DNA from: Armatimonadota bacterium
Lineage (GTDB): Bacteria > Armatimonadota > Zipacnadia > Zipacnadales > UBA5352
Assembly: GCA_034722055.1 (NCBI GenBank)
Contig: JAYENL010000111.1
Coordinates: 1-39,236 of the forward strand
Reading direction: 5' to 3'
DNA: 39,236 bases
Below the pieces are notes generated by a model. That model had not been told where the DNA came from and searched no databases. It saw only the letters and a list, made by a program, of their open reading frames with translations. Positions 4,244-23,141 of this stretch are shown piece after piece; position 1 is the first letter of the stretch, and each line of letters begins with the position of its first letter. The position numbers and the translations under genes were made by a program.

Positions 4244-6211
4244 CTAGAACCCCAGGCCCATCGTCTCGCCGAACTCCAGCGAGATCCGCCCCGTGGCCTC
4301 AGACCATCGCAGCCCGATCTCGGTACCGCCAATCTCCCGCGCCACCGTGACCTCGTAGTCGTCGTAGTCCCCCGACTCCACCTGATAGTACGTCGCCGCC
4401 AGGCCCAGTCGCCAGCGGTCGTCAATGAGGTAATCGACCAGCCCGAAGGCGTACAGCTCGTCATCGCTCAGGTCGTAGGTGCCTGTCATGAAGCTGCTCA
4501 GGTTCAGGCCGTGATAGGCTCGCACGTCCAGGTTCAGCAGGTGCTCGTAGCCCTCGGCCTCATCCCCGCTGGTGAACTGCCCCTGGTAGGATAGGCGGAT
4601 CGACTTGTCACTACTGACGACCTGGCGCAGTTGCAGTTCACCCCGCAACGAGTTCCGCTGAAAGCCCCCCGTGTCCCACGTGAACAGGTCGCTGACGGAC
4701 GGCCGGAGGGACGTTCGCTCACCCAGATGCGTCCGCGGGAAATCCACCGCCGAATAGACCTGGTGCTCTCCCACCACTCCGCTGTCGAACGCCGCTACGT
4801 GGCGCAACCCCACCGCCGTCCCCACCCGGTAGCTCGCGTTCCACGAGCCCAGCGGCTGGTTCATCGTCAGCCAGTCGGCGGAGGCGCCCCACGAGATGTC
4901 CTCGCCCCGCGGCCGCTGCAGCGACGCCGTCAGATTCAGCCGCCGATCGCCCCACCACTCGTAAATGTTGGCATCCGCGAAGTAGCTCTCGTGATCGGGC
5001 GAATAGGCCGTGAAGTGCCCATCCCGGCGATCCCCCAGCGCCCGCCGGTCCCGCCATTCGAACCCCCAATCGTCTCGCGGCAATCCCAGCAGGCTGATGT
5101 GCCCTTCGGTCCCACCAGTGTCGTAGGCCTCCTCCAGAGCTAGCGACCAGTCGTCTCGCGCCATCACGCTCCCCGATGTCGCCCCGTTCTGCAGCTTCAC
5201 CGCCCCGGTTCGCGTCTCGGTCACCCGGTAGAAGTAGGGAAAGTCCACCGCTATGTCACCCTCCGAGGTGACGCCCAGCACCCGCGAGTGCGTCGTCCCC
5301 GTGTAGCCCGGCATGGCGATGATCCAGTAGTTGGGGAGATCCACCACCTTCTTCGCGCCCGCGTAGAGCGTCGCATCCCTCAGCACGACCTTCTCATGCG
5401 GATGCACCGACACACCGCCGGCAACCGCCCAGGCCACGGCGTCGGCCGTCGCCAGCGCGAACTCCTGTCCCCGAATCTCCTCCTCGGGCTCCCGCTCCTC
5501 AAGGCTGTAGCAGTCGAAGCAGAAACGCTCCACCCCCGTGTCGCTCATCCTCCTGAGCACGCCCTGCCCACTCATCAGGTCGTAGCTGATCGCGTCGGCC
5601 TCCAGTGACCGGTCGCCCACCTCAATCCGCACGTTGTGGGCCTTCAACGTCAGCCGTCGCACGTCCATCTGCACTACGTCCCGAGCCTTGATGAGCACGC
5701 CGCTGAACTCGATCTCGGCGTTGTCGCGCGCCTCCACCAGTCCAAGATCCAGGGCATAGCCGATCCACGTGTTCGGAGAGCCGGAGCGGATATGCGCCAC
5801 CGCTACCGCACCCAGCAGCGAGCTCCCCTCCTCCACGAACGCCACGGTAGTGCGGTTCTTGCCCTCTCCGGTCGTCAGCTCCGCGTATACCGTCGCGACC
5901 CCAGGCTCGCTGCTGGTCGCATAGACCGTCGCTCCGCCCGCCACAGTGGTCGTCGTGATGACCTGCCGACGCTCATCCCCCTGCAGGCTGAGCTGCCCGC
6001 CCTCCATCCTGAAGACCACCGTCGTCCCGTCTACCACCGGTCGCCCGGTCGCGTCCCGGAACTCCGCGCGGATCGTCGAGGCCGACTTCCCGTCCGCCGG
6101 CACCACTCGCGGCGTGGGCCACAGGCTCACCTGCACCCCGGCGAACCGTGGCGTCTGACCCCAGGCGATGCCGCAACACACCGCGGCGGTCAGCGCAAGC
6201 GTGCGTCTGAT
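4244..6211 (-). CDS. Outer-membrane protein: signal peptide, invasin/intimin-type Ig (Big_1-like) domain, OstA/LptD-like jellyroll and beta-barrel
   Basis: VPADGKSASTIRAEFRDATGRPVVDGTTVVF is Big_1-like; VEARDNAEIEFSG...LEADAISYDL and VSVHPHEKVVLRDATLYAG...LPNY are LptD-like; amphipathic beta-strands follow; ends in Phe (GLGF). The ORF track starts at GTG 6181, but the RBS and signal peptide point to ATC at 6211. Confidence 0.7.
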   Translation of the reverse strand: MRRTLALTAAVCCGIAWGQTPRFAGVQVSLWPTPRVVPADGKSASTIRAEFRDATGRPVVDGTTVVFRMEGGQLSLQGDERRQVITTTTVAGGATVYATSSEPGVATVYAELTTGEGKNRTTVAFVEEGSSLLGAVAVAHIRSGSPNTWIGYALDLGLVEARDNAEIEFSGVLIKARDVVQMDVRRLTLKAHNVRIEVGDRSLEADAISYDLMSGQGVLRRMSDTGVERFCFDCYSLEEREPEEEIRGQEFALATADAVAWAVAGGVSVHPHEKVVLRDATLYAGAKKVVDLPNYWIIAMPGYTGTTHSRVLGVTSEGDIAVDFPYFYRVTETRTGAVKLQNGATSGSVMARDDWSLALEEAYDTGGTEGHISLLGLPRDDWGFEWRDRRALGDRRDGHFTAYSPDHESYFADANIYEWWGDRRLNLTASLQRPRGEDISWGASADWLTMNQPLGSWNASYRVGTAVGLRHVAAFDSGVVGEHQVYSAVDFPRTHLGERTSLRPSVSDLFTWDTGGFQRNSLRGELQLRQVVSSDKSIRLSYQGQFTSGDEAEGYEHLLNLDVRAYHGLNLSSFMTGTYDLSDDELYAFGLVDYLIDDRWRLGLAATYYQVESGDYDDYEVTVAREIGGTEIGLRWSEATGRISLEFGETMGLGF

Positions 6212-6233
6212 AACAGATCCTCCCTTAATCGAT

Positions 6234-6266
6234 GCTGCCCGCGGCTAGGTCTCCGCCGCGGGCAGC
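6234..6266. other. Perfect 12-bp GC stem-loop inside the operon, no U-tract on the coding strand
   Basis: GCTGCCCGCGGC (6234-6245) / GCCGCGGGCAGC (6255-6266), 9-nt loop, directly 5' of the RBS of the barrel gene. Confidence 0.8.
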
Positions 6267-6310
6267 TTGTCTGCTTCAGCTTTGACGGACGAATCCCCGT
6301 CCAGGTTCCG

Positions 6311-7381
6311 CTATCCGGGGAACACCACGGAGTCGAACTCCGCCCACGGCGACGGGCCGGTCGTCGTGAACTGGGCCCGAATCCGGTACCGGTAGCTCAC
6401 ACCCTCATCCACCTCGAAGTCCGCGAAGCTGGTGTCATCCGCCAGCACATTCCCCTGCGACCCGGGCACCGGATTCCAGGTCGCACCGTTGTCCGTGGAC
6501 CGCTGCAGGTCGTAGCTCAGCACCGTCAACGTCGTGTTCGGAGGCTGCCAGAAGAGGCGGATGGCCGCCGGTTCGATCTGCAGGTCGCCCGGTCGTGGCG
6601 GTACCTTCGTGGCCGTCGGGCCCGCCCCACCACCGCCATCATCTCCGGTCGCGATGATCAGGCCCATCACCGCCAGCGCCGCAATCGCCCACCGCCAGCT
6701 CTTATCCTCCTTCTTCGGGCCCTCCTCCGCGGCCAGCTCCTCTGCCGGCATTCCGGCCAGCACGCTGCTGGCCTTTCGCGCCGCGTCCCTCAACGCCTCC
6801 CGCACCAGCGGGGGGACGCTTCCGGTGTACGCCTCACGCTCTCGGCTCGTGCCTGAGACCCCGAACGTCTCGACGGGCTTGGGACTCTCCGCCACTTCCA
6901 TCGTGTCAGGGTCCACATTCCCCCGCACGTCGTAGCACCGCCCGTTCAGCAGCACCTCGGCCCGCAGCGGCTCCTCCAAGATCTCGACCGAATCCACCGT
7001 CGCCAGGCAGACCTCATCCACGTCCAGCGCGTACCCCAGCCGGATCGCGGTCACCGGATCCGTTACCTCCGCCTCAAGATCAACGGACCGGATCTGGCCT
7101 TCCTCGACTGCCCGCAGCACCATCGGTGCCGTCCTCGAGAACTCCGCCACACGCAGGCCAGCCACATCGCTCAGCGCCATCTGCAGATATGAGGTCGCCC
7201 AGGCGCTGAGATCCTCGTACCCGGCCTCGCTCCGGTCCAGGACGGGGTACAGCAGCAGCCTCTTCTGCGCCTGCGCCTCGGCGCGTGACATGACGCTCGT
7301 CGGAACCAGCAGGGCCAGCATCATCCCCGCAAGCACGATGCTTAGCGGTCCGACCAGCTTGCTGGATCTTATCGCCGTCAT
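6311..7381 (-). CDS. Exported protein: CsgG/TolB_N-like alpha/beta domain, internal hydrophobic helix, C-terminal fibronectin type III domain
   Basis: RBS AGGAG; signal peptide ending AEA|Q; RLLLYPVLDRS...AIRLGYALDVDEV; KKEDKSWRWAIAALAVMGLIIATGDDGGGG; Fn3 pattern IRLFWQPP...YDLQRS...YRYRIRA. Confidence 0.65.
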   Translation of the reverse strand: MTAIRSSKLVGPLSIVLAGMMLALLVPTSVMSRAEAQAQKRLLLYPVLDRSEAGYEDLSAWATSYLQMALSDVAGLRVAEFSRTAPMVLRAVEEGQIRSVDLEAEVTDPVTAIRLGYALDVDEVCLATVDSVEILEEPLRAEVLLNGRCYDVRGNVDPDTMEVAESPKPVETFGVSGTSREREAYTGSVPPLVREALRDAARKASSVLAGMPAEELAAEEGPKKEDKSWRWAIAALAVMGLIIATGDDGGGGAGPTATKVPPRPGDLQIEPAAIRLFWQPPNTTLTVLSYDLQRSTDNGATWNPVPGSQGNVLADDTSFADFEVDEGVSYRYRIRAQFTTTGPSPWAEFDSVVFPG

Positions 7382-7448
7382 TGTTGCATTCTCCTATCCT
7401 GTCCGCGTTCGGCCGCCTGGTAGTATTGCAGCGGCGACTCTGGCCCTC

Positions 7449-10259
7449 CTACCGGGCAATCGTCGCCGTCCTGATCACGCTCATCTCTTCGCCCGTCTCG
7501 GGCGAGCGCGCCGTCACTTGCACCAGATACCTTCCCGCCGGAACCACAGTCCCGGAGTCGCTCACACCATTCCACACCAGGCTGTTCTGTCCCTCCATGG
7601 CCTGGCGGTTCTGCGCCACCCGGCGCACCACCCGACCCGCGATGTTCCTCACCTGCACGTCCACCGCCGCCGCGCTATTGAGGGTGTAGACGATCTCCAG
7701 CCCCTGGCCGCCCGCCGGCCGTGCTGCAGCGGTCAGGCCCAGCGTCGCCTCCGCCCGCGGCCGGACCGTGATGCGGAAGTGCCTCTCCCCACCGGTGTGC
7801 GAGTTGTATGTGTACGAGCTGCTCGTTCGCATGTATGTCCGCCGGCCGCCGTCAAGGTCCTCCAGCGTCGCCACCAGGTCCTCCGGCAGCTCGGACGAGA
7901 GGTTCGGCCACCGCAGCGTGACCGGCGCACCCGGCGTCTCAGCGACCACTGTCAGGTCCCACGCCCCGGCGCCAGCCGCCTCCGACCTGGTGTCCATCAC
8001 GTAGCGCAGGCCGCCGTCACCGATGCTGAAGTAGGCGTCCAGCCCCGGCTCCGCCGAGAGTACCTCCGGCGGCGATGGTACGTCGCGCGGATCCACCCCA
8101 TCCTCGGCGCTGGGCGAGACCGCCAGGTAGCGCGGCGCCCGAGTCCGGCCTGCACACGACACCTCTACGCCGACCCGCCAGCCGTCTGACACGGGAGGAC
8201 TCGCCGCCGCAGTAACCTCCGCCGGCGCAAAGAGGCTCGGGGGCGGGAACACCAGAGAGACGTCCCGATACGCCAGCAGCCAGTAGCCCTCGAACGGCAC
8301 CAACGTTGCCCGCTGCAGTGAGCTCTCCCAGGTGTACTCGTTGATCTCCGGATCATACGCGTAGAGCACCGGCAGGATCAGCCCTCGCTGCGTCGCCTCC
8401 TGGATCGTCCACTCCGTGCCCTGAGGCCCCACCACGCCTACCTGATCGAAGCGCATCGGAACCACGTAGGGGTTCCCGATCTGGTTCCAGCCCTGCATGA
8501 GGGGATGTGTGAAGCTCTGCGTGGACGGTGCCTGTGTGGCGGTGCTCGGCAGTATCACCGTCTCTCGGTTCTGGTTCAGCAGCCAGAAGCCCTCGCCCAG
8601 CTCGATGTTTGCCACGAAGGGGTCGGGATAGGTGAAGTACTCACCTCGATCCGGATGCCAGCGCCAGATCCCCACCGGCCCGCCGGGGAAGACCGAGTCG
8701 CTGAGCGACCCCAGCACATTCGAGGCATCCGAGTTGGTGAACTCGTAGGGCACGGACAGCATCTCCAGCCCCGTCGCCGAAACTCGCGCCGGAATGACGG
8801 GAATTGCCGGAATGTTGATCTGCCGCCGCACCACCTTCCCCAACGGCCCCGTGATGCTGATCTCAGCCGTGCCCGGACGCGTCGCCGTGGCCCGCACCGT
8901 CCACTGTGCCATCGGCAGAGGCGACTGGTTCCGCCTCACCATGCCCAGCGCCACCGTCCGCGGCTGCGTCTCCGGATACAGCTCCAGGCCCTCTGGAAGG
9001 CTGATGCGCACGCTCGCATTCGTCAGCGGTGAGGATCCGAAGTTGTCGAGCATCGCCACCACGTCGAAGACCGAGCTGCCGTCCGGGGCGGTCAGGTAGT
9101 ACTCCTCCGTCTCCGGCGTGGCCGGGTCATCGCCCTCTTGCACCTGAAGCTGCGAGGGAGCGTAGGCCGCCAGCGCGTAAGGGGGGTCGTAGTCCACCGC
9201 CGCAGCGCCCAGCCCGTAGTAGGTCACGTACCGCCGGCTCTGCCCTGGCTGCAGCGTCCGCTCCTCCCACTTCACAGCGTAGGCCCAGTCCTCGTCGATC
9301 AGCGCTGCCCGCGGGTTGGGCTGGAAGTCGAATGGCCTCGCGTCGACATTGCGGAACTGCCCGAAGGCGATCTCATCCGGCTCCCCCCCGCTCTCCGAGG
9401 CGATTCCGGCATCCGTGACCTCCGCCCCCACCAGCGTCCCCCTCACGCTCACCAGTGGATTGCTGGGATCGTCGTGCGCCACCCACGTGTCCGGCATGGC
9501 GATCGTCGGATTGTCGGGGTCCGGAATCCGGACCTCGTTGCTGATCACCGTCCCGTCGTCGAGTATGATCGGGCTGCCGTCCCTCGCTGTCGCCCCAAAG
9601 AGCGCGTCGATCATCAGCCGCAGGCCGATGTTGTGCGCCACGCTGTCATCATTGTACACGATGTGATCCAGCATGATCCCGTCGTGCACCAGCATGTAGT
9701 TCACACGCACACGCACGTTGGGGTTGTCTTCCTCGGGCACCTCGGTGAGCAGAGGCACCAGCACCTCACCCACAACATCCCGTGCACCCGCCACCAGGTC
9801 CTGCACCCAGAAGATCGGCACATCCGCCGGGTCCGCCTCCTCTGTCTGGTTGAACATGAGGCTATAGGGGTCGAAGCGCACGCCGTCCACCGAGACTGTG
9901 AGCTTGGAGGTGAACTGCGTCAGGTTCCAGTCCGGCGCCGCGGTCTCCAGGCTCGCGATCGGCCGGTCCTCATCCCCCGCCACCAGCGGGCTGCCGCCCA
10001 CCGCCACATTCGCTCCGGTCCTCAACTGGAACCGGCCGGCGGGTTGGTAGATATACTCCGGATCGTCCGCGTCCCCGACGTTGATGAGTGCCGGTGTGTC
10101 AACCAGCATCCGTGTTAGCCCCGCGGGATGGTTCACGGTGGCCCGCACGTTCTGTGCCGCGCTCTGGCTCCATGCCGTCAGCAGGATACACACCGCGGCC
10201 ATCCACGGCCCGTACCGCCGCAGCCCTGTCAGCATTCGTAGACCACTATGCCGCTGCAC
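7449..10259 (-). CDS. Large secreted protein of unknown function carrying the shared C-terminal tail (FlgD-Ig-like end)
   Basis: AGAGGAG precedes GTG 10259 (ORF track start 10301); signal peptide ending SAA|Q; beta-rich body; tail from GLEMLSVPY (~8772) with GWNQIGNPY, YMRT, NIAGR; ends TIAR. Confidence 0.8.
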   Translation of the reverse strand: MQRHSGLRMLTGLRRYGPWMAAVCILLTAWSQSAAQNVRATVNHPAGLTRMLVDTPALINVGDADDPEYIYQPAGRFQLRTGANVAVGGSPLVAGDEDRPIASLETAAPDWNLTQFTSKLTVSVDGVRFDPYSLMFNQTEEADPADVPIFWVQDLVAGARDVVGEVLVPLLTEVPEEDNPNVRVRVNYMLVHDGIMLDHIVYNDDSVAHNIGLRLMIDALFGATARDGSPIILDDGTVISNEVRIPDPDNPTIAMPDTWVAHDDPSNPLVSVRGTLVGAEVTDAGIASESGGEPDEIAFGQFRNVDARPFDFQPNPRAALIDEDWAYAVKWEERTLQPGQSRRYVTYYGLGAAAVDYDPPYALAAYAPSQLQVQEGDDPATPETEEYYLTAPDGSSVFDVVAMLDNFGSSPLTNASVRISLPEGLELYPETQPRTVALGMVRRNQSPLPMAQWTVRATATRPGTAEISITGPLGKVVRRQINIPAIPVIPARVSATGLEMLSVPYEFTNSDASNVLGSLSDSVFPGGPVGIWRWHPDRGEYFTYPDPFVANIELGEGFWLLNQNRETVILPSTATQAPSTQSFTHPLMQGWNQIGNPYVVPMRFDQVGVVGPQGTEWTIQEATQRGLILPVLYAYDPEINEYTWESSLQRATLVPFEGYWLLAYRDVSLVFPPPSLFAPAEVTAAASPPVSDGWRVGVEVSCAGRTRAPRYLAVSPSAEDGVDPRDVPSPPEVLSAEPGLDAYFSIGDGGLRYVMDTRSEAAGAGAWDLTVVAETPGAPVTLRWPNLSSELPEDLVATLEDLDGGRRTYMRTSSSYTYNSHTGGERHFRITVRPRAEATLGLTAAARPAGGQGLEIVYTLNSAAAVDVQVRNIAGRVVRRVAQNRQAMEGQNSLVWNGVSDSGTVVPAGRYLVQVTARSPETGEEMSVIRTATIAR

Positions 10260-10290
10260 CGAAGGGTCAGCTCCTCTCACCATGAGCCCG

Positions 10291-13200
10291 TCACCGTGCA
10301 ATGCTGAACGGTCGTATTGCCTGCACCGTCTGGCCGTCTGCTGCGAGAGCCGTCAGCCGAACGATATAGCGGCCCGAGGGCACTGCGCTGCCCCGGTCGC
10401 TGATGCCGTTCCAGACCAGCGTCTGCTGCGTCCCACTCTCCACGGCCTGCGCGGCGAACCGCTTCACCAGCCGGCCCGCGATGTTCATGACCTCCACCGT
10501 CACGTCCGCTGGCCTCGTCACCGAGTACGTGATCATCGCGCCGCCCGCGCCAGCGCCCTGCGTCGCCATGCCGTTGACTGCCAGGGCCTCCCCGCCGCCC
10601 ACTTCCGTCACCCGCAGGTGCCTCACGGTTCCGTCCGCCCCGGCCCGGAAGCGATAAGCCGAGGTGGTACGCATGTACACCCGCTCTCCCGTGTCCAGGT
10701 CCTCCAGCATGAGGCGCACACCTCCGGGGACCTCGGCATTCAGCTCAGGCCAGGTGACCTCGACCTCCGCGTCGGGCACCGCACAGCTCACTTCAATGTC
10801 CCACTGGGCCGCCTCGCCCGTCCCGCACACGTCACGCGCGTACTCTCCGCTGTGCTCGCCCCACCCCGGCCGCGACATCGACAACTGGACGCCGTCCACG
10901 ATCGGCGGCGGCTCCGGCACGTCCCACTGCGGATCATACCCCGCGCTCGCGTTGGACTTCACCCCGATGACGTTGCACGGATCCTGATACGCGCCCGCAC
11001 GAGCGCTCAGGGTCAGCAGCCAGCCGTCATCCGACTGCGCCTGCACCGTCTCTTCCTCGTCCGCCATCGATCCGATGTTGGAGCTGTAGACGACGACGCG
11101 CGTGTCCTCATTCACGTGCAGCCAGTAGCCCTTTCCCGCCTCCAGCATTGCCTGAGAGGGGTTCGGGGTGAAGTCGTAGAAGCCCGGTCGCCCGCCCCGG
11201 CCCTGCACATACCTGAACAGCACGCCCTCCGTCACGCCGGAGTTAATGGCCTCCCGCAGGTCCTGGCGCACACCGTTCGTCACGAACTGCACGCTCCCCC
11301 AGCTTACGTCCTCGTCGTAGGGATTGCCGATCAGGTTCCAACCTCGCGGCGGCTGCTGGCCCCGGTACAGGCGGATGTGCGCGCTCGGCACGTCGCGCAG
11401 CGGCTGCCCCTGGATGTCCAGCACCCCACTCCGCGGGATGCTCAGCCAGTAGCCCAGGCCGGCCGGCGGATAGGGCACCGTGCGATCATCCAGATTCGCC
11501 TGCTGCGCGTCCGGCGGGGTCAGACTCGCCCGAGCATCCGGGTAGAAGTGGTACTTGTCGTAGGTCTCGTCCAGAGGCCACCACCGTACCAGCGCCAGGT
11601 CCGACAGCGGCGTCCCCAGAATCACGCTGGGGTCGGTCACCTGCAGATCGGTGTACGGGAAGCTCACCATCGAGATTCCGCCCGGGATGGTCGGCGCCGC
11701 CACCCGGAAGTTCGTCACCGCCGGGTCGGCCTCGTTCCCGGTGTTGTCCTGCACGCCGAGCACCACGGTATGGTCCGTCCGCGCCAACACGTCCTCCACC
11801 GGCCAGGTGAACTGCCCGGTGCGGGCGTCGTAGAACTCCGTGATGTCGTCGGCGTCCGCGCCGTTGAAGACCTGTATCCCATCGAACTCGACGGTGATCG
11901 TCGTCGGGGCCACGCCGCTGCCGTCATCCTGGATGAAGGCGATGATGGTTGGGATCCGCGTCGTGATGGTGGTGCCGTTCTGCGGATAGGCGATCGTGAT
12001 TGTTGGCTTCCGGCTGTCCGCGCCCACCCGCATCCGCAGACGTCCCCACCCGAACTCGTTGTTCGGAACCGGGTCACCCAGCCGCAGCGCCTGCGAGCGC
12101 AGCACCGTCTCCAGCTCGTCGGGCGTCCGCAGCTCGTCCTCGCTCAACAGCAGCGCAGCCGCGCCCGCCACGTGCGGCGCGGCGGCTGACGTCCCCAGGA
12201 ACGGTGAGAACCCCTCCGCTGCTAGACTCGTGCTCACCCCGTCCGGCGCCACCAGATCGGGCTTGATGCGCTCCGGATGCCCCACCACCGGACCGCGGGA
12301 GCTGAACGGCTCCAGCCCATCGATCGGCACCATCGGGGCGGCCGGGTCTGAGACCGTCGCTCCCCGAGTGGCGCCAATGGTATACGCCCCTCGCGCCTCC
12401 GCCGGAATCGGCATGCTCGAGGTCGCCACCTGATGGGTTGCCTCGATGTCCACGTTCGCCGAGAAGAGCTGGAGGAAGTCATCGTGCTCCGCCGGCCCCG
12501 ACACGTACTCAACCTGCAGCGTGTAAACCGCGTCTACGCTGATATGCGCCACCAGCGTATCCGATGGTGGATCGTCGCCGTTCTGGCTGTACCCGGAGCG
12601 GGTAATCTCGTTCCCGCTGGAGTCCAGCAGCACCAGGTCGTAGTCCCTGTTGGTGATCGACCCGGCGGTCTGATACCAGCTCAGGTAGGCCTGGTAGACC
12701 CCGGCCGTCAGCGTCACGTCGATACCCTCGTCGCCGGCGGAGAACTCGTGCAACTGATCCCGATCGCGGTCGCTCCACGCCCCCTCGTAGTGCTGCTGAG
12801 CGCTGTTCCCGGCCGCATTGACCCAGAACACGCCGCGGTCACGAGCGCGGTTCACCTTCTGCGATATAGGATGCGTACCGTTGTAGGGACCGCCAAGCAG
12901 TCCCATCGCCATGCAGCAGACGTCGATCCCCCGGTTCGCGACGAACTCGATGGCGCTTTCCACGGACATCTCGGTGTCAACTGCAATCAGGATGAAATCT
13001 GCGGCAGGAGCCACGTCGGCGGCTATCTCCGCCACCGCTGTGCCGTGGTAGCTTGTGCCCATCGTGCCGTCCGCCCGGAAGGACACTACCCTGTCCGGGT
13101 CAGCGGGATCGATCGGGATCTCCGCGCTGTCGAAGCCGGCGAATCCCAGGTCGATGATCGCGATGGAGATCCCCTGCCCCAGCAGCCCGGCCGTGTGGAA

Positions 13201-13736: not shown

Positions 13737-14927
13737 TCAGCCCGCCCCACCCTCCTGCTCTGGGTTGTCCGTCACTCGACCTAGAAGCTGTTCAAGGCGG
13801 CCGCAGTAGCACTCGATCAGCCTGCCCCACCCGCTCGCCGCCCCGAATCCCTCAGCCTGACCCGCGTACCCCGCCGGAACGTCTTCCAGCGCCATCGGCA
13901 TGAGAACCGTCAGCCCACAGCCCAGCCCACCGACCCCCATTGCGCTTAGCCGTTCCGCAGCTCTCTCGGCCTCTTCCAGCGCCCTCCCGTCGCCGTTCGC
14001 CAGCGCCTCGCACAGCCCCTGGACCTCGCACAGCTCCCCGTTGGGGCCGAATCGCTGGGTCTGGCTGCGCGCGGCCGTCACTCCCGGGCACCAGCTCCTC
14101 ATGTCCCCGGACAACGCCGCTGACAGGTCCTTCAACGCCCCTATCGCTCCGTCAAGCGCCGCGAGCCGGACGGCCGCCGCCTTGCACTCGCCGTCCCTGG
14201 GCAACTCTACGCACTGCATGGCGAGCGTCTCTGCCTCGGACAGTCCCTCGACCGGGCGCACCTGCACCCCTGCCCACTGCACTCCCGCCACCGGCGCCCG
14301 GCCGGGCCACCCCACCATGACTTCCGCCGCGTCACGAAGTGACCAGGCCGCCTCCACGCTGGCGCCGTAGCAGCAATCGGCCACAAGTATATCAAGCGGC
14401 CGCTCGGCATCGCCGAATGCCCCAGCCACGGCACGGGCCAGCTCCTGCGGTGTCAGCACGTCGCCGCCTGCCGACGCGTCGAGTGCCAGCCCCTGCGCCT
14501 CGTAGCGGCGATCCCGCTCTGTCGTCCTGCCGCTGGCCGCCACCCCGTGGCCGAACACCACGAAGGCGAGCCGATCACCCACGGCCCGCCCCCGGACCCA
14601 GCGGAGGAAGTCCTCGACGGCCTCCCGCCGACACATGTTGATCTGCCCGCGCCGCCACCACTCAGTCTCCGAACCTTCGGATCCGACGGCCTGGCGCGTG
14701 ACGCCATCAGGGAGGTCCACCTGCGACCTCAGAGCCCATCCATTCGCCGCTGCGGCCACCCGAAGCCCCTCGGCGTACCTCTCCGCCACCCTCGCCAGAT
14801 CCCCGTCGCCGCAGATGTAGGCGGCAACCGTCCAGTTGTCAGCGATCGCGACGTCTCCGGCCAGCGCGCCGCCGAGGGCCAGCGCGGCGCACACGAGCAT
14901 CCGCAGGCGGCCGTACCGCACGCTCAT
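13737..14927 (-). CDS. Secreted clostripain-like cysteine peptidase (family C11, clan CD)
   Basis: Signal peptide; NWTVAAYICGDGDL matches the clostripain N-terminal WTxxxYxxGDNDL pattern; His-Gly motif FVVFGHG; Cys motif LVADCCYGASVE equivalent to FDACxMxxxE. Confidence 0.75.
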   Translation of the reverse strand: MSVRYGRLRMLVCAALALGGALAGDVAIADNWTVAAYICGDGDLARVAERYAEGLRVAAAANGWALRSQVDLPDGVTRQAVGSEGSETEWWRRGQINMCRREAVEDFLRWVRGRAVGDRLAFVVFGHGVAASGRTTERDRRYEAQGLALDASAGGDVLTPQELARAVAGAFGDAERPLDILVADCCYGASVEAAWSLRDAAEVMVGWPGRAPVAGVQWAGVQVRPVEGLSEAETLAMQCVELPRDGECKAAAVRLAALDGAIGALKDLSAALSGDMRSWCPGVTAARSQTQRFGPNGELCEVQGLCEALANGDGRALEEAERAAERLSAMGVGGLGCGLTVLMPMALEDVPAGYAGQAEGFGAASGWGRLIECYCGRLEQLLGRVTDNPEQEGGAG

Positions 14928-14956
14928 AGGCGCGACCTTAGGGCGCAGGCCCTCCT

Positions 14957-16906
14957 CTAGCGAAGCCCCCGGCTCCGCAGTCCGGGCGTCCTGTGTCGGT
15001 ACCGGGGCCCAAAGGTCCCTGAGAACACGCCGCCCGGCCCGAGCCGGTAACTGGCTGAGCTGGTTCCCGGCGGTGGCGGGGGAGCCGCCGCGGTCGTGAA
15101 GCTGCGGATGGCGCTGAACAGCCAGCCCTCCTGGTTCAGGCGCTCGTTCAGGGGCAGTGCCTCACCTGACCGCCGCGCACCCACCCGCCAGTAGAAGCGG
15201 CTGTTTGGTGCGAAGTCTGCATCAATCGTCTGGAACATCGTGCCCGTCTGATCCTGCCGCATCTGCACCTCGTAGTCCGGATTGCGCCGTCCGTCCGGGT
15301 CATCCTCCGGGAAGACCTGCAGCACGTATTCGTTGGCCCCCACGGTCCCGCTCCACGTGAAGGTGATGGAGTTGGTCTGCTGGTTCTGTGCCCCGTCCTC
15401 CGGGGTCTGCAGTACCGGCGGCGTGAAGTATGTCACGCCGGCCGTCGGCTTGCTGCCCTCCGCCTGCGACTCCGGCGGGTCGATCTCCAGGGTCGGCGTC
15501 TCCAGCTCATCCTGCTGCATCGTCCGGACGGAGTCTGTGGTTATCGGCGCGCCGGCGCCCGCCCGCTCTGGCGGTTCCACGACGCGCTGCACTCGGTGGT
15601 AGTAGGTGTGGCCAGCCTGCAGCGGCCAGTGATAGAACAGCAGGTCGATGCTGCCGTCCTCCTCGTCGCCAGCCGCAGTGATGTAGGTGAACTCCTCTTC
15701 GATCTCAAACGGGCCGTCAAAGGCCGAATCGTCGTCCCAGACGTTGTTTGGCAGCCGCTGCTCCAGGATGACATCCACCAGCTTGTTCGCCAGCAGGCTG
15801 AAGTTCTGCCGGCCGTCGCTGCGGTAGAACAGCCACGCGTAGATCTGATCGTCGAGCGGTATCGACTTGTGCGGCACGTGCACCCGAATGACCGCCTCGT
15901 CTCCCGGCGCCTGCTGGAACAGCCGCGACGTCACGCCCGCCGGCGCGTCCGTAGTGCTCGAGCCCGTAGCGGTCTGCATGACGCCGAACAGGGCTGCGAT
16001 GGCAGCGACCACTGTGATCGTCTGCTGGCTGGACTCCTTCCGCCGCTGGGCCTCCACACGTTCCGGGCCTTGGTAGAGCTGGTAGGCCCGGTCCCCCACC
16101 CCCGCTCGGCCCTCTCCCAGTGGCATCATCTTCGAGGTCCGAGCGCCCACCTCGCTGACCGAGTAGCGCCCCACCTTCTGCAAAATGATCTCGCCCAGGT
16201 CCCGCTGATACACGGGACGGAACAGTATCATGGCCATGCCGCTCTTCAGTCTATCGTCCTGCCCCAGGTCAACGGTGGCCACGCCGAACTGGTTGACCGA
16301 CGTCACGAAGCCTTCGGGAATGCGGCTGGTGCGGATCTCCGCCACCGCGTCCTCCGCGATCTCCCGCAGCGCGTCATTGATGACACGCGCGCTCTCGCCC
16401 GTCCAGCCCGGCAGTGCCTTCGTCACCGTGCTCACATTCGCGCCGTTGAGGAACTCACCGGTCGCCAGGTCCAGCACCGCCACGCTCAGGTTCACGCTCA
16501 CCTGCCCTGTCTTCTCGGTCACCCGCAGGTGCCTCACCTGACCGGTGATCACCTTGTCCACCTGCAGACGCTCACCAAGCCGCATCTGCTCGGCCACCGA
16601 CAGCGGTGGCTCCAGTTCAAGCTGCGCCAGCTCACGCACGAGGTCCCGTTTGGAGGTAACGATGAATTCCCTCGAATCCTCAAGCGCCAGCGCCAGCGCG
16701 TCCGTGGCCTGCTCGCTGATGACGGACTCGGTGGACCCCTCGGTGTCCTCTATCGGCAGCACGATCACGCTGGCGCTCTCCACCACCGGCTGTGCCTGCG
16801 CCTCCGCCACCACCGGGAAGCCCATCACTGCGTACGGGACCATCAGCGTTGCCGCTACATACAGCGCGACGTACTTCCAGAGGGGGCTCTCGTGTAGTCG
16901 ATGCAT
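14957..16906 (-). CDS. Exported protein: CsgG/TolB_N-like domain, FlgT_C-like beta domain, hydrophobic helix, Fn3-like domains, Pro/Arg-rich tail
   Basis: GGGAGGAG RBS; signal peptide ending AEA|Q; SVIVLPIED...RLGERLQVDKVITGQV...VLDLATGE; VDLGQDDRLKSG...VGRYSVSEV; ITVVAAIAALFGVM; FTWSGTVGANEYVLQV...FYWRVGAR. Confidence 0.65.
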   Translation of the reverse strand: MHRLHESPLWKYVALYVAATLMVPYAVMGFPVVAEAQAQPVVESASVIVLPIEDTEGSTESVISEQATDALALALEDSREFIVTSKRDLVRELAQLELEPPLSVAEQMRLGERLQVDKVITGQVRHLRVTEKTGQVSVNLSVAVLDLATGEFLNGANVSTVTKALPGWTGESARVINDALREIAEDAVAEIRTSRIPEGFVTSVNQFGVATVDLGQDDRLKSGMAMILFRPVYQRDLGEIILQKVGRYSVSEVGARTSKMMPLGEGRAGVGDRAYQLYQGPERVEAQRRKESSQQTITVVAAIAALFGVMQTATGSSTTDAPAGVTSRLFQQAPGDEAVIRVHVPHKSIPLDDQIYAWLFYRSDGRQNFSLLANKLVDVILEQRLPNNVWDDDSAFDGPFEIEEEFTYITAAGDEEDGSIDLLFYHWPLQAGHTYYHRVQRVVEPPERAGAGAPITTDSVRTMQQDELETPTLEIDPPESQAEGSKPTAGVTYFTPPVLQTPEDGAQNQQTNSITFTWSGTVGANEYVLQVFPEDDPDGRRNPDYEVQMRQDQTGTMFQTIDADFAPNSRFYWRVGARRSGEALPLNERLNQEGWLFSAIRSFTTAAAPPPPPGTSSASYRLGPGGVFSGTFGPRYRHRTPGLRSRGLR

Positions 16907-16988
16907 TATCTCGTTGCTCCTCCCGGCACGCGGCTCACGGCACGATCCGCCCGGATGTTGCGCACGGAAGTCAGTCCTTATCCTGCAA

Positions 16989-17018
16989 GCTCCGCCGTGC
17001 CACGATGCGCGGCGGAGC
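16989..17018. other. Strong intergenic stem-loop just downstream of the largest cluster gene
   Basis: GCTCCGCCGTGC / GCGCGGCGGAGC, 11 of 12 Watson-Crick pairs, 6-nt loop; only TT follows on the coding strand. Confidence 0.7.
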
Positions 17019-17027
17019 GCGCTGCCC

Positions 17028-20000
17028 TCATCGGCCCAGCCTCATCGTCCCCATCGCTTGACTCTTCTGGCCGCTCTCACCCTCAGCGGTCACCACCACC
17101 AGATACGTCCCGTTCGGCGCCCTCGTGCCAGTGCTGGTGCTGCGGTCCCACACGACCCTCTGCACTCCCGCCCTCTGCATCGAGCCGTCGATGACCGTGT
17201 CCACCACCCGGCCGGCGATGTTCAGCACACGCACCTGCACGCTCGCCGCCGCCGACAGCGTGTAGGTGATCTCCGCTCCCGCACCGGCCGCTCGCGCTGA
17301 CGGTGCCGATACCGCCACGCAGCCCCCATCATCGGCCAGCACGATCTCCAGCTCTCGCGCATCCGCCCTGGCAGCCAGCTCATAGCCCTGCACGGTGCGC
17401 ATGTACACCTCGTTACCCGCCGCGGGATCGACCAGCACCGGCCTCACGTCCGCCGGCAGCGATGACAGGTCCGGCCAGCGGACCTCGACCTGCTCACCGG
17501 CTGGCGCCATCACGCTCACCGTCCACGTGGTCCCCGCCGCCTCCGGCCGCACATCAACCGCATAGCTGCCCTCACCTGCAGCGGCGTAGACGCAACTACC
17601 CATCCCCGGAGGCGGGGGCTTGAGCATGTCCATGCCGGCATCAAAGCCCTCCGTGGCGCTGGGAGCACAGCCGATCCACGTCGATGCGTCCCGCATCCCC
17701 GCGCTGCTCACGACCACCGGGATCAGCCAGCCTCCCTCCGGGTTCGTCACTGCGGCCCGGCTGGCCTCCCCGTCATCGGCCAGCGTGTCAGTAAGCCGGT
17801 TGCCGAGGATATCCACGCCCTCGCTCACGTTCAGCCAGTAGCCCACGAAGGGCTCCGCCACCGCCGAGGTCTCGTAGGCCCCCAGCACGTAGGTGAACAG
17901 CGGGCTGCGTACCAGGCCCTCCGCCATCGCCTGCTGCATGGTGTAGACGATGCCGGTGCGGTCACGCACCTCCAGCGAGAAGAAGTCTATGGCGTCGGTG
18001 AAGAAGTCGCCGATCAGGTTCCACCCGGACTGCCCCGAATCCAGCGGCACCTGGTGCTGGTCACCGGCCTCGATGCCCTCCTGCGTCAGCTCCAGCGTCG
18101 CAGTGGGCTTCATCCAGTAGCCGCTCCCCAGTCGGAAGCGGTCCGCCGGCGTGGACGGGTAGATGTGATAGCGCCCGTCCCGCGGCTCCCAGGCCGCCAT
18201 CTTGAAGTTCGCCGCGTCCGCTCCCAGCAGCGCTGCGGGATCCGTGTTCGGGTAGTCGTAGGGCAGGGAGATAAGCTGCAGCCCCGCGGGGAACGTCCGG
18301 ATGCTGCTCACCGAGAAGTTGACCGCATCGGTCTCCTCGCCGCTGGTCACCGTCACGATCCGCCGCTGTGGCGAGACTGTGAAGCCCTGCGGATCCGGCT
18401 CCACCACGATCTGCCCGGTGGGCACGGCGTCGAATCGGTAGTTGTACGGTGCACCGGTCTGGGGTCTCGTCACCTCGGCCTCGCTGACCGCAGCATCAAT
18501 GATCTGCTCGTTGACCAGCAGGTGCACTGTGATGCCGCCCACCGGCTCACCGGTCAGCCCCCGCGAGATGAGCCCCGAGATGCTCCCCGGCGGCTCGCTC
18601 TGCAGCGGGATAGTCACTTCCTGTGTGGCAGCCGCCTCCACCTGCACTGGTTGAGGGTCCGAGCGCTGGAAGCCCGCCGCCGCCGCCTCCACCGAGTAGG
18701 TGCCCGGCTGCACCTCGATCCGCACCTGACCGGAATCGTCGGTCACACCCTGGCCCATCAGCGTGCCATCAGTAAGGATCTCCACCAGCGCGTTGGTGAT
18801 GGGATTGTCCTCGATATCGGTCACCGTGGCGATGACGGTCCCCGGCGCGGCGCCCAGCGCGAAGTCCAGGGTGGTCGTGTTGCCGCTGGTGACGGTCACC
18901 ACGGACTCCTCCGTGTCATACCCGAGGTGGCTCCCATCAGCCACCACGATCACCTCACCGACCGGGATGTCACCCAGCAGGTAGGTCCCGTCGGCGTCCG
19001 TGGTCGTGCAGGCGATCAGCTCACCGCGCTGCGGCCCTTCGTCCTCGTCTCCATCGCCGTTCTGGGCCGGCTCGGCCTGACTCTGCTGACCACCGTCTCC
19101 GTTCTCCTCCTCATCCTCCGGCTCCGGCTGGATCGCCTCGTAGGCGCACACCTCCACCGTCGCCAGCGGCTCACCGGTGGCCAGCGCCGTCACCGTCCCC
19201 CGGATCGCCCCGGGCGCCGCCCGCGTGATGGCGAAGTCGATCACCGGATAGGCGCCGCCCCCGTGCGCCTCCTCGTTATCCTGGTGGTCGATCTCGAACC
19301 CCGGCCGATGCGCCCGCAACGTGTACACGCCCGGTGCCAGCCCGCCCATGACGTAGCGCCCGTCCTCCTCGCACCGGACCGCGGCGATCACGTTCCCACC
19401 CTGTATGGCCTGAACCACCGGCGTGGGGTCGTTGATGGGCTGATTCCCGTCGCTGATGGACAGCACCCGGCCCTGGAAGCCCGCAGTTCGCAGGTGGCAG
19501 AGGCAGTTGTGCATCAGCTTCGACCGGAAGTTCAGACAGACGCCGTACTCCTGGGGGTCAACCACGTCGTAGGTTCGATGTGTCTGCTCGAATCCCCACG
19601 CGAAGTAGATGACCCTGTATCCGCCGCCGGGCTGCTCGTACCGCAGACCCGCGTTCCCCTCCGTCGAGTAGGTGTGTGTCACCGTGGCCCCCCCGACAGG
19701 TTCGATCACATCCGACCACAGCGTGTACTGCGCACAATCCTGTCTCCGGCACTCGTTGCTGATCTCGTGCACGCCAGTCTGCATAGTCAGGGGCGGGTAG
19801 GTGTAGAACGTCCAGCCCGGGTGCCGAGCCACCGGATCGCCGTCTACGCCGTTTACCTCCGGAGGCCAGTAGGCATCCGGCAGGCGGTCGTCCTGACCCA
19901 GGCTGACAACGATGAGGAAGCAGCCTCCGTCGGCTGAATCCTCAACATAGTTGGCGTGCAGGTAGTTCGTGTAGAAGTTGTTCTGCACCGTCCCGTCCAG

Positions 20001-22151
20001 AGTCAGCGCAAAGCCGATGTCCTGGCCCGACATCATGAGGCGCCCGCCCCGATCCAGGAAGGTCGCCAGGGTCGCCTGGGTCGATGCATCCACGAGGCTG
20101 CCGGGACCGGCCCACACATCGCCGGTATGCGGCGCGGCCCATACTACGCACCGGTTCGCCACCAGCACCTCCCGCAGGTCCTGCATGTCCGGCACTGACA
20201 ACTGGACCTCCGTCGCGGGCAGGTAGTAGATGAGGTCGTTCATCGTGATGGGACCGCGGCATATTACCCGCCACAGATCATAGCGCTCCCCCAGCACCCG
20301 CCTCGGCGGCCCGCTGACCCCGTCGATGAACGTGTTGTACGCCTCATTATCCGCCTCCTCTGAATCGCCGGGGTTGGTCGTGTAATAGCTCTCCACAGGG
20401 TAGACGGTCGGGAAGTCGTTGTTCTCCCAGCTGGCGTTCCAGATGAATCCCTGGCCCTCGCAGTAGTCGTCCACCAGCAGGACGTTGTACTGCGGCTGGA
20501 ACATCAGCGTGGTAAAGCCATAAACGTCGTCGTACTCGAAGGCGTTGCCGGCCACGTCCTGAACGACGATGTCGATGATGAAGTCGCTCGGCGACAGCGG
20601 CGTGGTCCACTTGCCGCTGAATATCCCGTCTCCCTCCACCGCATCGCCGTGCTCCGGATCACCATCATCGAACAGCTCGGCCTGCCCCGCCTCCCGGCAG
20701 TCCAGCTCCAACTGCCCGGTGCCCTCCACCGGCTCGATGGACCAGCTTGCGCCCGGGTAGGGGCCGAAGATCTTGTTCTCCCGGCCCTGGCTGTCGTCCA
20801 CCGCCGAATCGGGGTCCTTGAACTGCGCCACCACATGCGCCACGCCGCTGTCGCGGTCGAAGACCTCCACGTGCACGGTGACGTCATTGCCCGGCGTCAC
20901 CAGCCGCCGCCGCGCGTCCACATATGGAAGAGCCATGAGCTGGGGAGGCACCGGGTCGGAGACCTCAAACCGCCAGATGTCCGGCTCAGCGCCGGCTTGG
21001 TCAGGGCGCCACGAGGTGAAGAAGATGCGCACCGGAAGGCGGGGGTCCAATCCGGGGTTGAAGCACGGGTAGCGATCGTCGAAGGTATCCTCGGGATCGA
21101 GGTTGCTGCGAAGCTGCGCGTCTACGGCGTCCTCACCGGCCGGCACCACCGTCCAGATGTTATAGTCCAGGTCCGCGTCCATCGCCTCCGTGCGCCGGTT
21201 GGACGAGAAGGCGATGAGCTGGCCGTTATGCCGCCACGCCGGATCGCGGTCATTCGCCGCCGGGTCGCCGCCCCCGTTGGTCACCTGCTCCTCGTTGCCG
21301 CCATCGGGGTCAACCCGGAAGATCCGGCTTCCCATGCCCGTCCCGCTGCGCGTGAAGAGGATCGGCCCCCTGATGACCCCCACCGACCTCGTCCAGGCCG
21401 GCTGCGTCTCCTCCGCCGGCGTCTGAACTATGGGCTGGGGCGCCTCCGACCCGTCGGAGGGCATCACGAAGATGTCGCGGTTGCGGTTGAGGTCGCCGCT
21501 GAACGCAAACCGCAGACCGTCCGGTGACCATGTCGGATCGTGCTTGTTCCCCGGCCCGCTCGTGATCTGCCGAATAGTCCCCGTCAGCACCTCGACGGTG
21601 TAGATCTGCCAGGTGCCGCTGGAGTTGTTCGAGAACGCCACCAGGCGGCCGCCGGGACCGTACTCCGGATACAGCTCGTCCCCAGGCATCTGCGTCAGTT
21701 GCGTCACCAGCGAGCCGTCCGTACGCAGCAGCCACAGGTTGAAGTCATCGGCGGTAACGCCCGGATCGAACTCCCCATCCCCGTTCTCATCCACGCCGTT
21801 GCTGGAGATGACGATCCGGTTCAGTTCGCCCTGCGGCGCAGAGTTGGGGTACAGCTCCTCGCTCGCCGTGGCCGTCGGGGTCAGTTGCAGGTCCGGAATC
21901 GGTCCGGGGCCCGCCTGCGCCGTCCGCACCTCTCCCATCCGCTCGAATAGCCAGTCCGGCCGGGCCATGCCGATGTACCGCCGGCCACTGGGCAGACGCT
22001 GTCCCGTGGCGGAGTAGTGGTCGGCAATGGTACTGGAACCCGATTGTGTCCCACGTGGGGAGGCGTTGAGGGAGGTGAAACAGGTGCTCAGAATAATTGC
22101 GGCGGAAAAGCAGACGACCAGTGTCAGAAGGATGCGCCCCTTCTGCAACAC
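17028..22151 (-). CDS. Very large secreted multidomain protein: PD40/TolB-like propeller, choice-of-anchor X-like motif, GATase-like alpha/beta domain, ~4 carboxypeptidase-regulatory-like domains, shared C-terminal tail
   Basis: Repeated P-x-W-S-P-D-G-type blades (HDPTWSPDGLRFAFS); LFDDGDPEHGDAVEGDGIFSG; VLLVDDY...LDRGGRLMMSGQDIG; repeated G-x-I-x-G-x-V...DGTY motifs; tail with GWNLIGDFF, YMRT, NIAGR; ends RLGR. Likely start GTG 22151 or TTG 22148 after GGGGAG (ORF track start 22292). Confidence 0.8.
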   Translation of the reverse strand: MLQKGRILLTLVVCFSAAIILSTCFTSLNASPRGTQSGSSTIADHYSATGQRLPSGRRYIGMARPDWLFERMGEVRTAQAGPGPIPDLQLTPTATASEELYPNSAPQGELNRIVISSNGVDENGDGEFDPGVTADDFNLWLLRTDGSLVTQLTQMPGDELYPEYGPGGRLVAFSNNSSGTWQIYTVEVLTGTIRQITSGPGNKHDPTWSPDGLRFAFSGDLNRNRDIFVMPSDGSEAPQPIVQTPAEETQPAWTRSVGVIRGPILFTRSGTGMGSRIFRVDPDGGNEEQVTNGGGDPAANDRDPAWRHNGQLIAFSSNRRTEAMDADLDYNIWTVVPAGEDAVDAQLRSNLDPEDTFDDRYPCFNPGLDPRLPVRIFFTSWRPDQAGAEPDIWRFEVSDPVPPQLMALPYVDARRRLVTPGNDVTVHVEVFDRDSGVAHVVAQFKDPDSAVDDSQGRENKIFGPYPGASWSIEPVEGTGQLELDCREAGQAELFDDGDPEHGDAVEGDGIFSGKWTTPLSPSDFIIDIVVQDVAGNAFEYDDVYGFTTLMFQPQYNVLLVDDYCEGQGFIWNASWENNDFPTVYPVESYYTTNPGDSEEADNEAYNTFIDGVSGPPRRVLGERYDLWRVICRGPITMNDLIYYLPATEVQLSVPDMQDLREVLVANRCVVWAAPHTGDVWAGPGSLVDASTQATLATFLDRGGRLMMSGQDIGFALTLDGTVQNNFYTNYLHANYVEDSADGGCFLIVVSLGQDDRLPDAYWPPEVNGVDGDPVARHPGWTFYTYPPLTMQTGVHEISNECRRQDCAQYTLWSDVIEPVGGATVTHTYSTEGNAGLRYEQPGGGYRVIYFAWGFEQTHRTYDVVDPQEYGVCLNFRSKLMHNCLCHLRTAGFQGRVLSISDGNQPINDPTPVVQAIQGGNVIAAVRCEEDGRYVMGGLAPGVYTLRAHRPGFEIDHQDNEEAHGGGAYPVIDFAITRAAPGAIRGTVTALATGEPLATVEVCAYEAIQPEPEDEEENGDGGQQSQAEPAQNGDGDEDEGPQRGELIACTTTDADGTYLLGDIPVGEVIVVADGSHLGYDTEESVVTVTSGNTTTLDFALGAAPGTVIATVTDIEDNPITNALVEILTDGTLMGQGVTDDSGQVRIEVQPGTYSVEAAAAGFQRSDPQPVQVEAAATQEVTIPLQSEPPGSISGLISRGLTGEPVGGITVHLLVNEQIIDAAVSEAEVTRPQTGAPYNYRFDAVPTGQIVVEPDPQGFTVSPQRRIVTVTSGEETDAVNFSVSSIRTFPAGLQLISLPYDYPNTDPAALLGADAANFKMAAWEPRDGRYHIYPSTPADRFRLGSGYWMKPTATLELTQEGIEAGDQHQVPLDSGQSGWNLIGDFFTDAIDFFSLEVRDRTGIVYTMQQAMAEGLVRSPLFTYVLGAYETSAVAEPFVGYWLNVSEGVDILGNRLTDTLADDGEASRAAVTNPEGGWLIPVVVSSAGMRDASTWIGCAPSATEGFDAGMDMLKPPPPGMGSCVYAAAGEGSYAVDVRPEAAGTTWTVSVMAPAGEQVEVRWPDLSSLPADVRPVLVDPAAGNEVYMRTVQGYELAARADARELEIVLADDGGCVAVSAPSARAAGAGAEITYTLSAAASVQVRVLNIAGRVVDTVIDGSMQRAGVQRVVWDRSTSTGTRAPNGTYLVVVTAEGESGQKSQAMGTMRLGR

Positions 22152-22391
22152 AATCACTCCCCGGGCCTGCGGCTTCGACCCATTGGTAGCGGCAAGTGGT
22201 GCTACGCGCGCCCCGTGAGTATTCGTCTGGCTCCAAGCCTGTCCCGCCACGGCCAGGACCTGATGGCCCTGGCCCGTCCGCCGGCAGCGCACCCGGGGAC
22301 GCCGTCCGCCACGTTAAGGCTCTCGGAGGCGCCTCGTCCGCCTCCGTGTCCCGCGCCCGCATGGCCCGGCGGCAAGTAACGTTCGCGGCGG

Positions 22392-22421
22392 ATTATAGCA
22401 CACCCCACCGCCACAACGCAA
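22392..22421 (-). promoter_or_regulatory. Sigma70-type promoter for the secreted-protein cluster (TTGCGT-N18-TATAAT, TGTG extension)
   Basis: Minus strand reads TTGCGT tgtggcggtggggtgtgc TATAAT, a perfect -10 in GC-rich DNA, ~240 nt upstream of the first cluster gene. Confidence 0.75.
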
Positions 22422-23099: not shown

Positions 23100-23141
23100 C
23101 GCAAGGCGCCTCCGAGGCCCATCCCCATCGTCGATGATTGC

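Follow-up and report, generated by a model that had tools for sequence, protein, structure and literature searches.

The DNA analyzed here (the window) is a 39,236-nt stretch of an Armatimonadota genome (assembly GCA_034722055.1, contig JAYENL010000111.1, positions 1 to 39,236). On its minus strand, at 4244-22292 and between coaE and uvrB, lie seven co-oriented open reading frames (ORFs; here G1 to G7), three of which encode proteins with a common C-terminal tail. An initial annotation, made from the sequence alone, had read this operon as a C-terminal-signal export system analogous to Bacteroidota's type IX secretion system (T9SS). Here, we report that the tails are homologous to those of T9SS cargo and that a compact homologue of the T9SS translocon SprA is encoded elsewhere in the genome. 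The best reading of the operon is that of a cargo source for a reduced T9SS. The features of the locus are given below, where A, B, and C-terminal domain (CTD) denote the three domains of the tail.

22392..22421, minus strand: putative sigma-70-type promoter called from sequence, TTGCGT, 18-nt spacer, extended -10 TGcTATAAT
17028..22157, minus strand: G1, signal peptide, TolB-like PD40 propeller, CarboxypepD_reg repeats, and A+B+CTD tail; predicted cargo (longest ORF starts at 22292)
17031..18338, minus strand: tail of G1, A+B+CTD, with the FlgD_ig match at 17079-17279
14957..16906, minus strand: G2, signal peptide, CsgG/LpoB-fold domain, FlgT_C-like domain, hydrophobic segment (aa ~297-315), FN3-like C-terminal part
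13737..14927, minus strand: G3, clostripain-family (C11, clan CD) protease with His/Cys dyad, in a variable "protease slot" after G2
10291..13641, minus strand: G4, signal peptide, S8 subtilase with Asp/His/Ser motifs, Ig domain, and A+B+CTD tail; predicted cargo
10294..11706, minus strand: tail of G4 as modeled with AlphaFold, A (residues 1-207), B (229-369), and CTD beta-sandwich (377-469; window ~10294-10584)
7449..10235, minus strand: G5, signal peptide, passenger without a Pfam family, and A+B+CTD tail at 7452-8828; predicted cargo
6311..7381, minus strand: G6, signal peptide, CsgG/LpoB/LptE-clan-like domain (paralogue of G2), hydrophobic segment, FN3
4244..6211, minus strand: G7, Big_1, OstA-like jellyroll, and beta-barrel ending in Phe

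Gene starts were picked by eye from ribosome-binding sites and signal-peptide-like N termini, which gave likely starts at 22157 (G1), 13641 (G4), 10235 (G5), and 6211 (G7) and, once starts were corrected, intergenic gaps of 29 to 121 bp. The start of G7 appears from the sequence to be a noncanonical ATC (6209-6211, minus strand), 7 nt 3′ of GGAGG, chosen because the next usual start codon would cut the signal peptide. No terminator-like site was found on the minus strand. The initial annotation had placed seven co-oriented genes with signal peptides behind one strong promoter; the genes stand, as do the signal-peptide-like N termini (7/7, read by eye), and the promoter is best called putative. 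Its TTGCGT-N18-TGcTATAAT motif (22421-22392) was not picked up by a consensus promoter scan; a similar extended -10 was matched 5′ of the operon in 10 of 13 related loci, and TGnTATAAT occurs once in the window and 39 times in the genome. That the genes should cluster in related genomes was borne out phylum-wide: the order coaE-G1-G2-(protease)-G5-G6-G7-uvrB recurs across classes, with relatives adding a PorV-like gene between G7 and uvrB, and the coaE/rpsA/polA and uvrB neighbors are kept across the phylum. On the best reading, the operon is a conserved Armatimonadota envelope locus that supplies cargo together with general envelope proteins.

The C-terminal ~440 aa are common to G1, G4, and G5 (30-32% identity; E 1e-43 to 1e-47) and end in FlgD_ig (PF13860). 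Three unrelated passengers do therefore share a conserved C-terminal tail, as proposed, although it is a three-domain module (A, B, and CTD) rather than the short tail first described. In the AlphaFold model of the G4 tail (pLDDT 93, 48 sequences), domain A consists of two GWN-type repeats. The full tail is found on 14 proteins of the genome, and one further protein has the last domain only; the passengers are diverse and include subtilases, an M6 protease, propellers, PKD domains, and beta-helices. A search with the G4 tail found a protein of Chondrinema litorale (Bacteroidota) that passes the TIGR04183 model for T9SS type A CTDs (26.9 versus 23 bits), and the tail profile aligns to this cargo protein over A, B, and CTD (hhalign, 99.4%; E 2.3e-21; 396 columns). 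Other proteins whose terminal CTDs are of the YPNP type carry the same A+B+CTD module. Against TIGR04183, the tails of the window itself score 16 to 20 bits, under the 23-bit cutoff; Arg is the last residue in 43 of 48 aligned tails, and the YPNP start is absent. In structural comparison, the modeled CTD matched the CTD of PorU (6za2, 1054-1157) at rank 2 of 48,161 (Z 11.2; root mean square deviation [rmsd] 2.3; 95 residues). Hence the proteins have the composition of T9SS cargo, a signal peptide plus a type A CTD, the latter recognized through homology to above-cutoff cargo and the PorU CTD. At the level of sequence, the terminal Ig-fold CTD is shown to be homologous to the T9SS type A CTD, and we read G1, G4, G5, and about a dozen more proteins of the genome as cargo of a reduced T9SS. 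As a separate observation, five tail proteins (L013 and L016-L019; C233, C179, C228, C129, and C149) are close paralogues of one another in which domain A is shortened; several of them adjoin mobile-looking genes, and we read the group as a recent expansion of cargo.

A weak SprA match (E 0.004) led to a 1,114-aa signal-peptide protein encoded elsewhere in the genome (G000:C298:4494-7838), directly 5′ of a tail protein, lipoproteins, lptC, and lptA. The SprA model TIGR04189 is matched by 17 of 22 aligned homologues of this barrel (best E 2e-21). The barrel family profile retrieves 28 proteins of ~2,000 aa or more, 22 of which carry SprA_N (PF14349), and in 20 of these 22 the match falls into two colinear stretches, one over the N-terminal barrel strands and one, ~300 residues later, over the Ig-like insert. 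By hhalign, barrel and SprA align over one 119-column segment comprising the Ig-like insert only, and the barrel profile, when searched against PDB sequences, missed SprA. The barrel was modeled at pLDDT 85.7 (79 sequences) with two Ig-like inserts and ~34-36 candidate strands, a count taken from the DSSP list; SprA is a 36-stranded barrel. VIA-align of the model placed SprA (6h3i) first (Z 19.4; rmsd 7.7; 649 residues; chain 132-2401). Thus, by profile and fold, a homologue of the SprA/Sov translocon is present. From sequence and modeling, the C298 protein is a single-copy, reduced SprA homologue, under half the usual length (~850-1100 aa across homologues; SprA, 2000-2500 aa), and likely the exporter.

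Among 24 loci examined, 22 had the barrel called, and in 9 of these 22 a tail protein lies within two genes 3′ of it. A genome scan with one barrel homologue gave 2 close loci. A barrel sequence search returned 343 clusters (E ≤ 1e-30); of 10 that were looked up, 2 had taxon names, both Armatimonadota. Outside Bacteroidota proper, the barrel profile search retrieved full-size SprA in “Candidatus Eisenbacteria” and Chlorobi. The compact gene usually lies in a second envelope cluster (L011 = G000:C298; L148-L167), in the order rhomboid-like gene, ~640-aa membrane protein, csaB-like gene, barrel, CarboxypepD_reg lipoprotein, tail protein, lipoproteins, lptC, lptA; the name csaB-like for the gene 5′ of the barrel is our assumption from its sequence. 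Two other kinds of protein were considered as the barrel and not counted. In the f10 family (L105:2286-15357, L106:2608-15734), pairs of ~2,070- and ~2,200-aa DUF11/SdrD-repeat proteins occur, the first of which ends barrel-like and is weakly similar to compact SprA; the ~2,070-aa proteins match no SprA model, and the pairs possibly represent a different export route. Barrels of 570-800 aa with one SprA-type Ig insert (L077-L084) form a separate family, found in barrel-negative genomes and adjoining anti-sigma/ECF-like genes in several loci; this family was absent from the profile search of the source genome.

To relate tag and pore, 201 genomes of the phylum, each at least 80% complete, were scored for the barrel (E < 1e-10, single query) and for the tail (E < 1e-36, B+CTD profile); a profile re-search of 77 negative or weak genomes plus 3 positive controls added G010 only. 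Both were present in 124 genomes and neither in 73; 3 had the tail only and 1 the barrel only, so that 197 of 201 genomes, and 40 of 41 families, were concordant. The three tail-only genomes are fragmented assemblies of positive families. As the profiles derive from positive lineages and families cannot count as independent, the genes were checked directly. At 27 barrel-negative G2/G7 loci, the CTD was kept in 0 of 33 tail proteins, 26 of which end after A and 7 after A+B; at 25 barrel-positive loci, 59 of 61 tail proteins had all three domains. In the A+B forms, the stop codon stands directly behind B, and most A-only forms end within 75 residues past A (one continues for 163). The contrast also appears within a family: G178, which is 100% complete, has neither barrel nor CTD, and two members of its family, G004 and G195, have both. 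Because the CTD tracks the SprA homologue while G7 and G2 persist without it, these two operon proteins do not explain the tail.

The operon's own envelope proteins were candidates for the pore in the initial annotation, which saw the exporter in the operon barrel or a CsgG-like ring. G7 fits its first description as an Ig plus LptD-like barrel ending in Phe (Big_1, OstA/LptD-like barrel, terminal Phe). Its homologues, single copy and near universal, occur in 194 of 201 genomes, some weak matches possibly being Big_1 only, and its nearest Atlas clusters are LptD_N/OstA/DUF3769 proteins of diderm Terrabacteria (scores 0.95-0.97). According to Atlas feature matches, an OstA jellyroll is followed by a C-terminal barrel, the arrangement of the LptD family; LptA or LptC is weakly matched by 3 of 10 G7 homologues. 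G7 does not match Pfam LptD or LptD_2 (PF04453/PF19838), the genome yielded no further LptD, and G7 searched against PDB sequences returned invasin Ig domains and nothing else. From these sequence relationships, G7 is most likely the LptD-type protein of the phylum, acting in lipopolysaccharide (LPS) assembly; being near universal, LptD/OstA-like, and retained where no CTD exists, it was rejected as the cargo pore. G2 homologues occur in 197 of 201 genomes and likewise persist without the CTD. Several tail-negative genomes keep G2, G6, and G7 together with no tail protein at all, which indicates a role independent of the tail. The label "two CsgG/TolB_N-like proteins" survives only as a loose clan link through homologues (CsgG matched by 4 of 16 G2 homologues and LpoB by 2 of 13 G6 homologues); the N-domains of G2 and G6 themselves have no Pfam match, and a metagenome scan with G2 gave no match. 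We therefore favor reading G2 as a pan-phylum envelope protein, and G2 and G6 as general envelope proteins rather than the cargo pore. A second copy of the C-terminal half of G2 and two further CsgG/FlgT_C-like proteins are encoded elsewhere in the genome (L021 = G000:C106:23391-24620; L022 = C272:5217-5954; L012:385-1368). Many G2/G6 homologues, and lipoproteins adjoining tail genes, also have a short polyproline C-terminal stretch (window 14957-16906 and 6311-7381; L012:5587-6615; L014:4930-5295; L011:12174-12680), which, judged from sequence, may be a second sorting or binding motif.

PorV/PorQ-family matches, all below cutoff, were found in 26 of 40 barrel-positive genomes. Compact forms (~270 aa) match NF033709 down to 3e-20 and, by profile, PorV of F. 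johnsoniae (6h3i_F) at E 4e-11. Of 25 full-length matches, 16 lie within 1.5 kb 3′ of the G7 match, that is, in the operon, directly behind its last gene in 16 genomes. A 275-aa protein at C233:4242 has no family match and was not taken as PorV. The clan CD Cys protease of the initial annotation proved to be Peptidase_C11 (PF03415; 51.3 bits versus a cutoff of 25.8; E 1.7e-13), and all 6 orthologues aligned keep its His and Cys. C11 homologues track the system, occurring in 121 of 128 barrel- or tail-positive genomes versus 9 of 73 negative ones. G3 itself stands in the operon within its own order; across loci, the protease slot holds S8 plus tail, C11 followed by S8 plus tail, or, in three loci, C11 fused to the full tail. 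PorU is built as a clan CD protease with its own CTD, consistent with the 6za2 match described above. The C11-tail fusion resembles this architecture but could equally be just another secreted protease. Most C11s sampled in the phylum are stand-alone lipoproteins, and their tree is poorly resolved.

Taken together, these data support a system that is, from sequence homology, best read as T9SS-derived rather than T9SS-analogous, given that the tail is homologous to T9SS cargo tails, that a SprA homologue is encoded elsewhere in the genome, and that PorV-family barrels exist. Cargo would be exported by Sec through the N-terminal signal peptide, after which the CTD would be recognized by the compact SprA homologue; homology, fold, and co-occurrence all point to this pairing, and the binding itself is predicted. 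A compact PorV/PorQ-family barrel (in the source genome, candidate G000:C103:32719-33522) may then take cargo from the pore, as in Bacteroidota, a role suggested by the family link, and release would occur at the surface. Removal of the CTD by the C11 protease in place of PorU is the weakest step and somewhat doubtful. The energy source may differ or be absent, as no GldL/M/N motor was detected, and G7 would assemble LPS. We put at roughly 70% the probability that this is a reduced, apparently motor-less T9SS of a Terrabacteria phylum (where we take Armatimonadota to belong), with the operon supplying cargo and export predicted. The undescribed C-terminal-signal export system of the initial annotation thus most likely exists, but the data do not support its being self-contained in the operon or made of families unrelated to T9SS: the supposedly analogous parts include a tail homologous to those of T9SS cargo, a SprA homologue on C298, and PorV-family barrels that often stand in the operon of relatives. 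A broader proposal, which we hold only tentatively, is that most Armatimonadota run such a minimal system, with a bare SprA barrel of ~900 residues, a compact PorV-family carrier, and C11 for PorU, exporting folded CTD-tagged proteins without GldKLMN. It might be an ancestral form of the translocon, older than the machine of Bacteroidota, or have reached Terrabacteria by ancient transfer, and would have been lost repeatedly with the tag.

Several observations weigh against the reduced T9SS. The barrel scores far under the TIGR04189 cutoff of 200 bits; MtrB comes within 1 Z unit of SprA in the fold comparison (18.5), though with rmsd 14.8 and 477 residues aligned, and Foldseek ranks SlpA and MtrB over SprA by E value, with SprA leading by query TM-score (0.33-0.34). 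For the CTD, generic Ig/FN3 domains tie with the PorU match and Vpr comes first (Z 12.4), so the fold alone proves little. The tail threshold of 1e-36 was set after the data were seen, in a narrow gap from 2e-38 to 2e-33, and neither genomes nor families are independent, the profiles having been built from positive lineages. G059 has one full tail outside the operon and no barrel, and G010 has a barrel and no strong tail. The operon passengers persist without the CTD in barrel-negative lineages, from which it follows that they can function there without export. The compact PorV-like form is patchy, several positive families showing weak, longer FadL-type matches only; it is also present in 5 negative genomes, and the candidate of the source genome is weak (E 6e-4) and was missed by the compact-form search. 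G3 sits on long branches, the tree does not settle its orthology to other C11s, and negative genomes also contain C11s of this type. PorU was above cutoff in 0 of 40 genomes, with two long partial PorU-like matches and one shorter. In the source genome, which is 92.7% complete, GldM and GldN had no match and GldL gave a fragment at E 0.02 only; the GldN and SprA_N controls gave no signal, and GldK was not searched. SprA_N, PorP/SprF, and the Pfam PorV model were likewise without a match there, and a canonical T9SS elsewhere in the genome was therefore set aside as the source of the tails, the reduced SprA homologue being found instead. The C25 match of the source genome is a short one in an unrelated protein and was not taken as PorU. 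Long C25-type matches without the C-terminal third of the model were seen in two other, barrel-positive genomes (G082:C447:3037-5163 and G001:C172:21426-23561).

The main rival to export holds that the SprA homologue binds the CTD without exporting it, serving in the outer membrane as a docking or plug site to which a periplasmic scaffold of the G1/G4/G5 type is tethered, with a link to cell-wall-polymer pyruvylation and LPS transport. Its best arguments are the missing motor and the survival of operon passengers without the CTD in negative lineages, and the position of the barrel gene, usually preceded by csaB-like and K1 membrane-protein genes and followed by lipoproteins and lptC/lptA, would suit it as well. 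Nevertheless, we consider it unlikely: 14 proteins with very different passengers bear the tail, as expected of secretion cargo, the tail's homologues are T9SS substrates, and carriers of the PorV family are linked to the operon.

The earlier idea of a self-contained operon, with G7 or a ring of CsgG-like G2/G6 as the pore, G3 as the sortase, and families unrelated to T9SS, draws on the tight phylum-wide synteny of cargo with G2, G6, and G7, on the CsgG-clan fold and mid-chain hydrophobic segment of G2 and G6, and on the persistence of A-only proteins with G2/G7, whereby A could be the signal for a G2/G7 route. It is very improbable in light of the LptD/OstA neighbors of G7, the only LptD candidate detected in the genome, of the negative genomes in which G2 and G7 are adjacent with no tail protein, and of a CTD that follows the SprA homologue rather than G7 or G2. 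We give the least credence to the view that FlgD_ig is a mere structural Ig domain whose match with the barrel reflects shared lineage history. Positive and negative states do mostly follow whole families, and the same Ig domain occurs at N-terminal or internal positions in negative genomes; yet the loss is domain precise in orthologous proteins of many families, a within-family contrast exists in f11, barrel and tail genes are physically linked, and each is independently homologous to a T9SS partner.

The remainder of the window is largely housekeeping (230-4138, 22494-27522, and 27841-37371), with uvrC, uvrB, coaE, rpsA, polA, and sppA; these flanks also hold an O-antigen-ligase-like gene, an M48 peptidase, and two CNNM genes.

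Excerpts of a 2026 review (PMC13721041) describe T9SS as restricted to one phylum, as do excerpts of a 2018 preprint, which add that the CTD is absent from non-Bacteroidetes (10.1101/483123). In the accessible part of a further study, the CTD binds SprA and PorV, and the Gld motor is inferred to be necessary for substrate release (PMC10994853). A search of the full-text literature found, by title and abstract, no report of a T9SS or SprA homologue in Armatimonadota, although supplements of genome surveys could list such; the sections seen of PMC12204202 and PMC8857248 contain nothing on either in this phylum. The compact barrel, the Terrabacteria host, and the apparent absence of motor and PorU thus appear to be new. 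If the reduced T9SS is real, it would extend T9SS to a Terrabacteria phylum, with a SprA homologue of less than half length, and CTD cargo to match, in ~60% of sampled Armatimonadota genomes, and would offer a minimal translocon in which to study the purpose of the SprA inserts and of the motor. A "hypothetical protein" found phylum-wide would gain a function, many "FlgD Ig-like" proteins would be marked as probable surface or secreted proteins, and the paired losses of tag and pore would serve as natural controls.

Compared with known systems, the operon's envelope proteins relate to three families. G2 and G6 homologues weakly match CsgG (of the type VIII secretion system), LpoB, FlgT_M, FlgT_C, or LptE; G2 and G6 differ in their mid-chain hydrophobic segment and FN3-like C termini, no lipobox was seen by eye, and the locus has no curli genes, leaving the fold clan as their only link to CsgG. 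G7 has the DUF3769-type LptD/OstA proteins of diderm Terrabacteria as its language-model neighbors and differs from them by an extra N-terminal Big_1. G3 resembles clostripain C11 in its above-cutoff match and His/Cys dyad but belongs to a fast-evolving clade within its own order, and some C11s of the phylum are fused to the tail. The system as a whole differs from the Bacteroidota T9SS in its Armatimonadota host, in the length of its barrel, which is without large inserts, in a CTD that ends in Arg and has no YPNP start, and in a protease of C11 rather than C25 type, with PorU/C25, PorP/SprF, GldM, and GldN not detected in the source genome and GldL seen only as the fragment noted above. With the Bacteroidota T9SS it shares a giant barrel homologous to SprA, patchily occurring below-cutoff barrels of the PorV/PorQ family, a clan CD protease that can carry a CTD, and cargo built from a signal peptide and a C-terminal beta-sandwich homologous to the type A CTD, the two domains before it being shared as well.

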